From contig JAUQPZ010000002.1 in the NCBI GenBank assembly GCA_030550155.1, forward strand, positions 769 through 64,768: a DNA stretch of 64,000 nt. The letters are read 5' to 3'. Of the stretch, positions 1,749 through 60,882 are shown piece after piece. The notes beneath the pieces are model-generated. The model was not told the DNA's origin and made no database searches. It saw nothing but the letters and a program-made list of their open reading frames with translations. The position numbers and the translations under genes were made by a program. This DNA is from Thermoproteota archaeon (lineage in GTDB: Archaea > Thermoproteota > Nitrososphaeria_A > Caldarchaeales > Calditenuaceae). Within the stretch, counting starts at the first letter, position 1, and every line of letters starts with the position of its first letter.

Positions 1749-4076
1749 TTGGATGCTGCATGGGTGAGTTTTGTGAGGGCTGTGCGGCTGAGGCTCTCCG
1801 GCATAGTTCAGGGTGTGGGGTTCAGGCCATTCGTCTATAGGGTAGCACATCGGGTTGGCGTTGCAGGATATGTTAGGAACATAGGAGGGAGTGGTGTTGA
1901 GATTCACGTTGAGGGGAGGTCAGAGGAGGTAGACGAGTTTCTGCGCGTTTTGATGATGGAGAAGCCCGAGAATGCGCGAATAGATTCGCTGCAATCTGAA
2001 GAAGTGGCGCCCATCGGCCTAAGAGGCTTCCAGATAAGAGAGAGCGACGCCTCCACTCAGCACAGGTCCATCATACCTCCAGACTTCTCGATATGCCGCG
2101 ACTGTCTAAATGAAATTCTCTCAGAAAGCCGTTGGAAACACTACCCCTTCAACTCATGCGCCTTCTGCGGCCCAAGATACTCGATGCTTTACAGCATACC
2201 ATACGACAGGGCAAATACTTCTATGCATGCCTTCCCTCTCTGCCCCCAGTGCCGAGCCGAGTATGAAGACCCTCTTAACGATAGGAGATTTCACGCGCAA
2301 GGCATAAGCTGCCCAGCATGTGGCCCACGCACGCGGCTCTACACAGCGAGGGGTGAGCTTGTTCTTGACGGTTTGGAGGCGGTAAGGGAGGCCTCCAGGC
2401 TTCTCGATGAGGGATTTATAGTCGCAGTGAAGGGGCTGGGTGGTTACCACATAGCCGCCTCGGCTGTCGATGACTTGGTAGTGGCGCGTCTGAGGGAGCG
2501 GAAGAGAAGGCCAACGAAGCCCTTCGCCGTAATGGTCCTCGACTTAGATGTTGCTGGAAGTCTCGTTGAGCTCAGCCCGGAGGCGTCAGCGGTGTTGGAC
2601 TCGCCCGAGAAGCCCATTATGCTTCTTCCTAGGAGAGATGGTGCGCAGGTCTCCAGCCTCGTGGCGCCGAATTTAAAGAAGCTCGGAGTCTTCCTCCCAT
2701 ACACGGCTCTTCACCACCTTCTCCTCAAGTGGACCAGAGAGAAATACTCGATAATGACGAGCGGCAACCCGCACAACGAGCCCATGTGCACCAAAGATGA
2801 GGAGGCTTTCAGCAGGCTCTCGGAGATCGTGGACTATTTTCTCACGCATAATAGAGAGATTGTGAATAGGGTGGATGATAGTGTGGTCCGTTTCAGCGGT
2901 GGCAGAATAGCTATGCTGAGGAGAGGTAGGGGATATGCTCCCAGGTGGATTCAGCTCCCATTCCGCTCTAAGAAAAATGTGGTCGCCTTCGGCGCTATGC
3001 TCCAGAGCGCTGGCGCAGTCTGTTTCGAAGACAATGTTATTCTGACACAGTTTATAGGCGACGTAGATGAATATGCATCCTTCCTTGAACTCGAGAAATA
3101 TCTAAGCTTCCTCGTCAGAACATACAATATCCAGCTGAACACTTCGCTCCACGCCTCCGACCTCCACCCCCAGTATCCATCGACTCTCTTGGCTGAGGAG
3201 TGGGCGCAGAGAAATGGCGGAGAGCTTATGCGGATTCAGCACCACTGGGCACATATTGCGGCCGTGATCGCGGAGTATGGTCTCCAAGAGGAAGAGGTGG
3301 TGGGTATCGCCATCGACGGCGTGGGCTTTGGGTCTGATGGCTCGGCCTGGGGAGGAGAGGTCTTGATCGCGGGTCTGAGGGAGTTTAGGCGTGTAGGATG
3401 TTTGAGGCCTCAGCCTATGCCCGGCGGCGATCTGGCGGTTGAGTATCCTGTGAGGATGCTTGCAGGGATACTTTCCAGCGGTCTTGGTAGGGAGCAGCTC
3501 GCAGAGGTATTTAGAGAGCTCGGCATAACTGAAAAGGGTCTGAGGCGTGGCTGGGCTGAATTTGAGTTCGTCTTGAAGCAGCTAGACGGCTCGCCGCCTC
3601 TCACTTCAAGCACCGGTCGGGTCCTAGATGCTGCGTCATCAATGCTCGGTTTCTGCCACAGGAGGACATATGAAGGTGAGCCAGCCATCGTCTTAGAAGA
3701 CAACTCTCGCCCCACGTCTGAGAGAATAAGGCCGAAGATCGTGGAAGGTGAGATAGCCATCCTCGACACAACCACCATTCTTCTCGAGGCCCTTGAAAGG
3801 CTAAGGAACGGGGAGTCGAGGAGCGAGGTAGGATACATGGTTCAGCATGCTTTGGGCTACGGCCTCGGCCTCATCGCGCGGAGAGTGGCGGGAAAGAGGC
3901 GTTTCGTCACCGTCTCGGGGGGAGCAGCCGTGAATGACTATCTCCTCGAAGGCATAAGAGAGGCTTTGACGGGAAGCTCTCTCGAGACTCTCTTGCCGAC
4001 TCAAGCACCTGCAGGTGACGGCGGCATCGCTCTAGGCCAAGCAGCGATAGCTGCTTACCGCTCCTTAAGTGACTGA
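1749..4076 (+). CDS. hypF: Carbamoyltransferase HypF
   Basis: 775 aa with an N-terminal acylphosphatase motif (VQGVGFRPFVYRVA), two CxxC...CxxC zinc-finger pairs, a YrdC-like region and a C-terminal Kae1/carbamoyltransferase region. The call starts at TTG 1749; a GTG at 1776 is an alternative. Confidence 0.9.
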   Translation: MDAAWVSFVRAVRLRLSGIVQGVGFRPFVYRVAHRVGVAGYVRNIGGSGVEIHVEGRSEEVDEFLRVLMMEKPENARIDSLQSEEVAPIGLRGFQIRESDASTQHRSIIPPDFSICRDCLNEILSESRWKHYPFNSCAFCGPRYSMLYSIPYDRANTSMHAFPLCPQCRAEYEDPLNDRRFHAQGISCPACGPRTRLYTARGELVLDGLEAVREASRLLDEGFIVAVKGLGGYHIAASAVDDLVVARLRERKRRPTKPFAVMVLDLDVAGSLVELSPEASAVLDSPEKPIMLLPRRDGAQVSSLVAPNLKKLGVFLPYTALHHLLLKWTREKYSIMTSGNPHNEPMCTKDEEAFSRLSEIVDYFLTHNREIVNRVDDSVVRFSGGRIAMLRRGRGYAPRWIQLPFRSKKNVVAFGAMLQSAGAVCFEDNVILTQFIGDVDEYASFLELEKYLSFLVRTYNIQLNTSLHASDLHPQYPSTLLAEEWAQRNGGELMRIQHHWAHIAAVIAEYGLQEEEVVGIAIDGVGFGSDGSAWGGEVLIAGLREFRRVGCLRPQPMPGGDLAVEYPVRMLAGILSSGLGREQLAEVFRELGITEKGLRRGWAEFEFVLKQLDGSPPLTSSTGRVLDAASSMLGFCHRRTYEGEPAIVLEDNSRPTSERIRPKIVEGEIAILDTTTILLEALERLRNGESRSEVGYMVQHALGYGLGLIARRVAGKRRFVTVSGGAAVNDYLLEGIREALTGSSLETLLPTQAPAGDGGIALGQAAIAAYRSLSD

Positions 4077-4089
4077 TGATATCGTCGAA

Positions 4090-4196
4090 CGCCGGGGGAG
4101 GGATTTGAACCCTCGCGGCCCGTGGAGGGCCACAGGCTCTCAAGGCCTGCCCCTCTGGACCCCGTGGAAGGCTGGTCCGGACTTGGGTACCCCGGC
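4090..4196 (-). tRNA. tRNA-Ser (anticodon UGA), 107 nt, with an approx. 21-nt intron in the D-arm region
   Basis: The reverse complement gives acceptor GCCGGGG/CCCCGGC and an anticodon stem-loop CAGGC-CUUGAGA-GCCUG (anticodon UGA). It has a long variable arm (GGCCC...GGGCC) and a T arm GAGGG-TTCAAAT-CCCTC. The D-arm segment is about 21 nt too long compared with the intron-less tRNA-Ser at 24754..24839. No CCA is encoded. Confidence 0.7.
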
Positions 4197-4244
4197 TCCC
4201 GGCCCCCCATAGCACTTCTCATTAATAGCTATTTAAGATAAGTA

Positions 4245-28939: not shown

Positions 28940-29374
28940 CTACCCAGCCGCCACTATTAAGGAGTTAGAGGCTGTTATTTTCTCTTCGGCGCTCCTCGTC
29001 CAAGACTTGGCTATGATCTTTACCGGATAGGTGAGCCTGCCGCCTCCCAGGACCTTGTCGTATCCTAAAGAGACGATATCGACGACGATTCTGTCGCCCT
29101 CCTTCTGTCCTTGACCCGACCTGGCCAGCTTCTCGGCTATGTTGGAGATCTGGTTAAGGTTTAGGGCTTTGATCTTTCGAGAGGTGGGTGGGAGGAATCC
29201 TTTTTCACCGAAGTGCTCGGGCTTATACTTTACAATCCATGTCCACTTGTGCTTATGTCCTCCCGCCATGCCTCTGCCGCCTTTGGCTCCGTGCTTCCTG
29301 TGTTGTCCTATCTGCCCCCAACTGTGGGTGCGGGACCCGCGGAGCCTCCGAATTTTTCGAAGCCTAGTCGGCAT
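28940..29374 (-). CDS. rpl15: 50S ribosomal protein L15 (uL15)
   Basis: 144 aa with a Gly/Lys/Arg-rich N-terminus (RKIRRLRGSRTHSWGQIGQHRKHGAKGGRGMAGGHKH) typical of uL15. Confidence 0.85.
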   Translation of the reverse strand: MPTRLRKIRRLRGSRTHSWGQIGQHRKHGAKGGRGMAGGHKHKWTWIVKYKPEHFGEKGFLPPTSRKIKALNLNQISNIAEKLARSGQGQKEGDRIVVDIVSLGYDKVLGGGRLTYPVKIIAKSWTRSAEEKITASNSLIVAAG

Positions 29375-29432
29375 TCATAAACACCTTAATTCATCTTCCA
29401 CAGCCCCGGATATATATCCTCCCGAGATTCTC

Positions 29433-29906
29433 TCAACACATGGCTCTCAGCAGGCCGGCAATCTCTTTTCCCGCATAGCCCAGCACTCCCTTCTGTCCTA
29501 TAGGCCTCTTGGTGCTGCCCTTGAACCCCCCTCTCGGGGGATGCAGCCTAAACGCCGGCTTGAAAAGTCTCCTAACAACCGAAGGCTCAATCTCGCCCCT
29601 GAAGAGTTTCTGGGCAAGCTCCTCCAGGCTGGACACTCCCAGAGCAGAGAGCTCCTCCCCAAAGTTTATCCCAGGATTTGGGTCGCCCCTCTTCAATAAC
29701 TTGGTTATAAGCTCCGGGCAAGGCTCTCCCCAAGTAACATAAGCATTCACCTTCCTCAGCATGCCTCGGACGCTCTCATCGTTGGGCAGAATTACGGCGT
29801 GGTTTATCTTTGTCAGGTTTAACAGCCTCAGGACAAGCTCTGTCTCGGCGCTGAGCTCGCTTGGCCCCCGAATCCTGACAGCCACGAGTACCGATGACTC
29901 CTCCAA
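29433..29906 (-). CDS. rpl30: 50S ribosomal protein L30 (uL30)
   Basis: 157 aa; N-terminal LVAVRIRG…LRLL, the archaeal long uL30 form, between rps5 and rpl15. Confidence 0.85.
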   Translation of the reverse strand: MEESSVLVAVRIRGPSELSAETELVLRLLNLTKINHAVILPNDESVRGMLRKVNAYVTWGEPCPELITKLLKRGDPNPGINFGEELSALGVSSLEELAQKLFRGEIEPSVVRRLFKPAFRLHPPRGGFKGSTKRPIGQKGVLGYAGKEIAGLLRAMC

Positions 29907-60330: not shown

Positions 60331-60882
60331 CTAAAGTGGAGGCGGGAGAAAGTCGAGCTCCGGCCTCTTCTCTTCCTCCTCCTTTAGCTGCACGACGAGC
60401 TCGTGCGCCCTTTTCAGGATTGAGTAGTTTCTATGGGGGAGAACTGCTATGATCCGGTCGATATCTCTGGCAGAGGTCTTCAGAGCCACCGCTTTACAGG
60501 GGAGCTGGCTTCCAGCCAAGTCGGCGTTTCGAGCCTTTAAGATGTAGCTGAAGACTCCGCCCACGCTCTTCTTTCCCTCAACAATCAAGTTACCCTCAGG
60601 TGTCTCACGAATCGTCTCAATGAAGAGCTCAATCTTGCCGGCGTCGGGGAGTGTTGAGGATGGCTTAACCTCGTAGGCAGCGGTTATGGTTCTCCCATGC
60701 TGACCGGGGAGCCTCTCAAGCTTGCAGGAGATTTTGGAGCCTATCTCGAGCCAGTCAGGAGGGTCGTGAAGAACGGCGTCAATTACCTCGCCTAAGAGGG
60801 TGGAGATAGAGATCTCTATAATGAGCGCCTTTCCTGCGCGCCTCGGCCTAATTCCTGAGATGTAGCCGTGGACCTCCTCCAT
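60331..60882 (-). CDS. Hypothetical protein
   Basis: 183-aa ORF with coding-like composition and an acidic C-terminus; no recognisable motif. Confidence 0.4.

Follow-up and report, generated by a model that had tools for sequence, protein, structure and literature searches.

The tRNA-Ser(UGA) gene described here raises the question of what the extra sequence in its D region is and, if it is an intron, where its ends lie. The gene occupies positions 4090–4196 on the minus strand of the window (the whole stretch of 64,000 nucleotides that was analysed). Its span from U8 to G26 comprises 40 nt, compared with 19 nt in the intron-less tRNA-Ser(GGA) gene at 24754–24839 of the same window. A first-pass annotation had given these two counts, which proved correct, and had proposed an intron of approximately 21 nt in the D stem-loop rather than in the anticodon loop. 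The placement in the D stem-loop holds, because a splicing motif is found at the insert, uninterrupted syntenic orthologues are equal to the predicted product, and four further lineages carry divergent inserts at the same site. Judging from structure and comparison, we consider it very probable that the product of the gene is a precursor tRNA-Ser(UGA) and that the insert is a single bulge-helix-bulge intron of 18 nt at position 21/22, removed by protein-based splicing.

The gene, its surroundings and its recognition by tRNA finders

The reverse complement of 4090–4196 (GCCGGGGUACCCAAGUCCGGACCAGCCUUCCACGGGGUCCAGAGGGGCAGGCCUUGAGAGCCUGUGGCCCUCCACGGGCCGCGAGGGUUCAAAUCCCUCCCCCGGCG) is a pre-tRNA-Ser(UGA) gene of 107 nt that has a 7-bp acceptor stem, a 5-bp T stem, a long variable arm and a serine anticodon, as in class II tRNA-Ser. 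Its 3'-end is the discriminator G73, and CCA is not encoded. The T arm contains GGUUCAAAUCC. The anticodon arm CAGGC-CUUGAGA-GCCUG is uninterrupted, and its loop CUUGAGA carries the anticodon UGA (TGA on the minus strand, 4140–4142), which ARAGORN also assigns to the spliced sequence. As had been observed in the first-pass annotation, the acceptor stem, anticodon arm, variable arm and T arm are intact and closely match those of tRNA-Ser(GGA). The minimum-energy fold of the precursor (−58 kcal/mol, z = −2.55) shows a cloverleaf whose D arm bears an additional hairpin, and there is a weak match to the tRNA clan. The identical pre-tRNA was found in six independent assemblies from NCBI, JGI, ENA and Logan (assemblies with this locus include JGI 3300000865, GCA_038828395.1, GCA_054177495.1 and GCA_038885475.1), and therefore it is not an assembly artefact. 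Positions 4090–4196 hold a real tRNA-Ser(UGA) gene of a hot-spring archaeon.

The gene order at the locus is prefoldin, ftsY, the archaeal-type phosphoenolpyruvate (PEP) carboxylase gene (PF14010; ppcA), the tRNA gene and hypF-hypD-hypC. The placement of the gene between hypF and ppcA was accurate: HypF is convergent with the tRNA gene and ends at 4076, and PEP carboxylase is divergent and starts at about 4272. Four tRNA genes were found in the window using a T-loop motif search. The gene at 4090–4196 is the sole tRNA-Ser(UGA) seen there, and the other two tRNA-Ser genes (CGA and GGA) are indeed distant, lying about 20 kb off. A protein that NCBI lists under 'Nitrososphaerota archaeon' matches the window PEP carboxylase at 100% identity. 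Among named relatives Ca. Calditenuaceae archaeon HR02 comes closest (70%), and there are further matches from Aigarchaeota and Caldarchaeum. According to a lineage look-up, Calditenuaceae belong to the order Ca. Caldarchaeales ("Aigarchaeota") of the phylum Nitrososphaerota. The organism is accordingly a Caldarchaeales archaeon and not one of the Thermoproteales, among which the first-pass annotation had placed its relatives.

An A/T-rich box, CTTATCTTAAATAG, is located at 4229–4242, 33–46 nt upstream of the tRNA 5'-end and some 30 nt ahead of the point where the divergent ppcA begins. Read on the minus strand as TTATCTTAAWTAG, it is conserved in the same place at every orthologous locus. The box, sited between two divergent genes, is probably an archaeal promoter element of the TATA/BRE type and perhaps one that both genes share or that acts in both directions.

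Standard tools do not recognize the gene. ARAGORN made no call at 4090–4196, its sole call in the window being the GGA gene, and Rfam at the gathering score found three tRNAs near 24.4–24.8 kb and none at 4090–4196. Both miss the gene because 18 nt interrupt the D-loop between nucleotides 21 and 22. With permissive Rfam thresholds the tRNA-Sec model alone aligns, with a 31-nt insertion in the D arm and 31.5 bits against a cut-off of 47. A tRNA-Sec identity was rejected given this score and the anticodon, which is UGA instead of UCA. In contrast to the precursor, the 89-nt spliced sequence is called tRNA-Ser(tga) by ARAGORN, and its cloverleaf is a normal one for class II.

Three of the four tRNA genes of the window are interrupted, with four introns in all. 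The tRNA-Gly(GCC) gene (24392–24507, plus strand), found by the motif search and Rfam, has two of them. The first, 23 nt long (pre-tRNA 31–53), is at the non-canonical position 29/30, which is present in the available part of the published position list, and has three of four pairs in the central helix, 7 bp in the outer helix h and 6 bp in the inner helix h'. The second, 19 nt long, is at the canonical position 37/38 and has a strict motif. ARAGORN recognizes the 74-nt spliced product as Gly(gcc), and Rfam reports a tRNA with one 53-nt insertion. The tRNA-Ser(CGA) gene (24566–24681, minus strand) has a 30-nt intron at 37/38, the central helix of which has one mismatch (3/4).

Predicted splice sites and the bulge-helix-bulge motif

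The precursor contains a single full hBHBh' motif with a short intron, so that the 5' exon ends at pre-tRNA nucleotide 24 and the 3' exon starts at nucleotide 43; all window coordinates below refer to the minus strand. The predicted central helix H has 4 bp, formed by exon GGAC (tRNA nucleotides 18–20a, pre-tRNA 19–22, window 4175–4178) and intron GUCC (pre-tRNA 37–40, window 4157–4160). It would be bordered on opposite strands by two 3-nt bulges, CAG at the 5' splice site (pre-tRNA 23–25, window 4172–4174) and AGA at the 3' splice site (pre-tRNA 41–43, window 4154–4156). On one side the intron would fold into a hairpin with the loop UCCAC (pre-tRNA 29–33) and the 3-bp inner helix h', in which CCU (pre-tRNA 26–28, window 4169–4171) pairs with GGG (pre-tRNA 34–36, window 4161–4163). 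On the other side U16, C17 and C17a of the D-loop (pre-tRNA 16–18, window 4179–4181) would form the 3-bp outer helix h with G23–G25 (pre-tRNA 44–46, window 4151–4153).

The splice sites were set by the rule that each bulge is cut after its second nucleotide. The rule follows from the published motif, which has a 4-bp helix, two 3-nt bulges and, for the canonical intron, the first two anticodon nucleotides in the helix (PMC4090602). It was calibrated on the canonical intron of tRNA-Gly(GCC), where it recovers the 7-nt anticodon loop CUGCCAC. The predicted cuts at the locus are 4173/4172 and 4155/4154. The 5' exon is then 4173–4196 (pre-tRNA 1–24, GCCGGGGUACCCAAGUCCGGACCA) and ends at tRNA nucleotide A21. 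The 18-nt intron at 4155–4172 (pre-tRNA 25–42, GCCUUCCACGGGGUCCAG) sits at the boundary between the D-loop and the 3' strand of the D stem. The 3' exon at 4090–4154 (pre-tRNA 43–107) starts with A22 and holds the 3' strand of the D stem, the anticodon arm, the long variable arm, the T arm and the 3' strand of the acceptor stem.

These ends agree with the motif geometry, with the orthologue alignment and with the absence of the block from intron-less orthologues. Moreover, excision of nucleotides 25–42 is the sole deletion to recreate the D arm found in intron-less relatives, ...GGACCAAGGGG / ACCCAAGYCMGGACCAAGGGG. At the predicted junction ...CCGGACCA is joined to AGGGGCAGG..., that is, GGACCA to AGGGG. 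Excision would leave a class II tRNA-Ser of 89 nt, in which the D stem has 3 bp (CCC/GGG) and the D-loop 11 nt (AGUCCGGACCA), with the anticodon UGA, the long variable arm and G73. The earlier length of approximately 21 nt has to be corrected to 18 nt, because the mature D-loop is 3 nt longer than in tRNA-Ser(GGA).

Splicing at other boundaries, for instance removal of the approximately 21-nt segment suggested by the comparison with tRNA-Ser(GGA), might be considered, since the D region is longer by that number of nucleotides and ARAGORN is tolerant of the exact ends. When it was applied to each deletion of 10–29 nt in the D region, nearly any deletion of 17–25 nt was called tRNA-Ser(tga). Hence cloverleaf scoring alone cannot fix the intron ends. 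The excision of 25–42, on the other hand, is the only one that fits a motif cut at the second nucleotide of either bulge and the only one that yields the D arm of the uninterrupted orthologues, whereas a 21-nt deletion produces a D-loop seen in no close relative with the CCC/GGG D arm. Different boundaries are therefore very improbable.

In composition-preserving shuffles of the 18-nt insert the full motif appeared in the correct register in 0.1% of cases, and the 4-bp central helix alone in 1.7%. Given these rates, the motif of the insert exceeds chance. Its exact form in the precursor depends on the D stem. The first-pass annotation had stated that a relaxed bulge-helix-bulge substrate is required; in fact the strict hBHBh' can be drawn, though the pairing of U16-C17-C17a in the D-loop with G23–G25 makes its outer helix and the D stem mutually exclusive. 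With the D stem in place, the splicing substrate is of the relaxed HBh' type. The strict form is possible, and the enzyme may meet either conformer. The motif conformers lie 5–11 kcal/mol above the minimum-energy fold at 37 °C. Constrained folds at 75 °C were disregarded, as the forced pairs were lost in two sequences.

The seven nucleotides GGACCAG, covering the exon end and the first intron base (4172–4178), differ by one base from GGUCCAG, the last seven of the intron (4155–4161). This near repeat is no evidence that the intron arose through tandem duplication of GGACCAG, since it follows from the GGWCC palindrome of the central helix.

In the predicted pathway the archaeal splicing endonuclease EndA would cut the precursor at these two bulges, and an RtcB-type ligase would join the exons. 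Aigarchaeota are reported to have a conserved EndA of the heterotetrameric (alpha-beta)2 type and to carry introns in the D, V and T arms of their tRNA genes (PMC3082918, PMC3293823, PMC5829648). A non-exhaustive search within the 64 kb found no EndA domain in the ten scanned open reading frames of suitable size (167–255 aa). Pfam (E ≤ 0.001) gave no match for two of these frames, one of 186 aa at 29139–29699 on the plus strand and one of 183 aa at 60331–60882 on the minus strand. The remaining eight are ordinary: CBS, Mut7-C RNase, AMMECR1, AAA_assoc_C, ABC transporter ATPase, ribosomal protein S5, methylguanine methyltransferase and TatD.

Orthologous loci beside ppcA

Orthologous genes were retrieved using PEP carboxylase as a guide, and syntenic intergenic regions were fetched; identities below are relative to the window protein (100%, insert of 18 nt). 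Four other lineages carry an insert: L127 (77%; ACCCUUCUCUCGGUCUAG, 18 nt), L131/L132 (69%; ACGCUGAGCCGGUCUAG, 17 nt), L138/L139 (69%; ACAGGGCUCUGGUCUAA, 17 nt) and L128–L130 (70%; ACCACCCAGGUCCAA, 15 nt). In all four it lies between exon ends identical to those of the window gene, GGACCA and AGGGG. In L128–L130 a tRNA-Ser(GGA) gene was also observed about 0.8 kb from the UGA gene. Uninterrupted genes are found in L141 and L142/L143 (62%), with the D arm ACCCAAGCCAGGACCAAGGGG, and in L135–L137 (51%), with the D arm ACCCAAGCCCGGACCAAGGGG. Calditenuis genes have a related D arm, GCCCGAGUGGACCAAGGGG. The alignment with orthologues proposed in the first-pass annotation thus bore out the intron, as uninterrupted genes carry exactly the predicted spliced D arm. 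The genes of the HR02 lineage (L133/L134) and of L140 (70%) are uninterrupted as well and have a different, GGA-like D arm.

In all five intron-bearing lineages the central helix has 4/4 pairs (with a GC-to-GU change), both bulges have 3 nt, and h has 3 bp. The inner helix h' varies from 1 to 3 bp and is down to 1 bp in two lineages; at its second pair three lineages have CG, GC or AU and one has a mismatch. The exons are nearly invariant across orthologues, while the loop of the insert varies in sequence and length (15–18 nt for the insert). The T stem and the variable arm show compensatory changes. Since the intron-bearing orthologues share ancestry, the five sequences are not five independent tests.

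The genes of L135–L137 came from a pattern scan of metagenomes that allowed 0–30 nt at the junction, and they stand in the same order as in the window, prefoldin-ftsY-ppcA-tRNA. That scan returned only intron-less alleles. The window's own sequence, present in a JGI assembly (L123), was not returned either, so that absence from this collection means little. A broad pattern scan of genome contigs gave no intron-bearing orthologue among the matches listed; those came from the protein-guided look-up. The matches listed (at least 120) were mostly from unrelated archaea, with some chance bacterial matches and useful intron-less Caldarchaeales genes. The uninterrupted genes are recognized by standard tools, L135 by ARAGORN and by the Rfam tRNA model (49.2 bits) and L141 by the latter (49.8 bits), whereas neither ARAGORN nor the Rfam tRNA model recognizes the interrupted orthologues.

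These comparisons also bear on two explanations without splicing. If the insert were retained, the D arm of the mature tRNA would be unusually long and bear an additional hairpin; the minimum-energy fold, where the D stem is preserved and the insert is stacked into a longer hairpin, is compatible with this. Retention is nevertheless hardly credible: the insert-free genes of relatives are the exact excision product, the insert diverges while the exons do not, and the parts of it that are conserved are those building the central helix and the bulges. A D arm of this kind is not known to us from any class II tRNA. The failure of standard tRNA finders to call the gene might alternatively point to a decaying pseudogene whose D-loop was disrupted by an insertion. 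But all its stems are intact, its exons are conserved where PEP carboxylase is only 69–77% identical, and its stem changes are compensatory. It is, furthermore, the only tRNA-Ser(UGA) of the window and keeps a promoter-like box, and the insertion has exactly the geometry required for its removal. Decay is thus most unlikely, and the spliced 18-nt intron at 21/22 is the reading followed below.

Probable gain of the intron, possible replacement of the gene, and relation to known cases

On the neighbour-joining tree of PEP carboxylase the five intron-bearing lineages group together. The uninterrupted L141/L142 and L135 are outside this group, and HR02/L140 are nested inside it. This single-gene tree suggests a single gain of the intron, within one subclade of Caldarchaeales. 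The syntenic tRNA-Ser(UGA) gene of the HR02 lineage (L133, 3846–3933; L134/L140) is identical to the window tRNA-Ser(GGA) in 79 of 86 positions, compared with 72 of 89 for the spliced UGA gene. The simplest reading of the sequences and of the same single-gene tree is that in this lineage the interrupted gene was replaced by a GGA-type copy, the anticodon of which changed from G34 to U.

Taken together, the loci may record a single and fairly recent gain at 21/22, a position absent from a partial published list, with the intron-less state, five diverged intron-bearing descendants and the HR02 replacement all kept beside ppcA. We put the chances of this whole scenario slightly below even. Within it, the outer helix h is built from two extra D-loop cytosines that predate the intron.

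D-arm introns of tRNA genes are already described in Caldarchaeales and elsewhere, and the window intron is one more example. The closest in lineage are those of Ca. Caldiarchaeum subterraneum (Aigarchaeota), where D-arm introns include one at 24/25 of tRNA-Thr(GGU) (PMC3082918, PMC3293823). The two organisms share the Caldarchaeales clade, short protein-spliced D-arm introns with bulge-helix-bulge junctions and intron-rich tRNA sets, and in both cases presence or absence of introns differs between close relatives; the window intron differs in the tRNA (Ser UGA) and in the position (21/22).

In Methanopyrus kandleri, pre-tRNA-Glu(UUC) has a D-loop intron of the HBh' type at 20b/21, which is cleaved in vitro by the (alpha-beta)2 EndA of the crenarchaeon Aeropyrum pernix (PMC5829648). 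This intron, too, lies towards the 3' end of the D-loop, one nucleotide from the window site, and its motif would be matched by the window gene if the D stem stays formed. The two cases differ in the organism and the tRNA; moreover, the strict hBHBh' can be drawn as well for the window gene, which is known from sequence alone.

Non-canonical positions including 20/21, 22/23, 25/26 and 29/30, as well as multi-intron genes of Thermoproteales and Thaumarchaeota, are given in PMC4090602 and PMC8450103. The mechanism and the gene disruption are alike, although the window organism does not belong to Thermoproteales. Position 21/22 is not in the partial list of PMC4090602, which ends with 'etc.'. In total, 673 non-canonical introns are reported in 217 archaeal genomes, and tRNAscan-SE 2.0 detects such introns by default (PMC8450103).

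Inserts of 14–24 nt in the D-arm region, resembling bulge-helix-bulge introns, were also seen in at least six tRNA-Ser(UGA) loci of unrelated archaea (L052, 4934–5042; L038, 2986–3092; L043; L034; L028; L047) from Nitrososphaerota, Anstonellales, Thermoproteota and Geoarchaeota. Their boundaries are approximate. Two of them, in L052 and L038, are at about 22/23 (HBh', with h = 0 and h' of 5–6 bp), and one is near 8/9–9/10.

The window intron does not challenge current understanding; its minor additions are the position 21/22 and the series of gain, loss and replacement. For annotation, ARAGORN and Rfam overlook the gene in the window and in four related lineages, and without intron-aware prediction the genome would seem to lack its sole visible decoder of UCA codons. 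A series at a fixed position, with intron-less, intron-bearing and replaced genes, is modestly useful for studying the gain and loss of non-canonical archaeal tRNA introns. If the single-gain scenario is true, the loci beside ppcA would provide a clean natural series in which the origin and disappearance of such introns can be followed.
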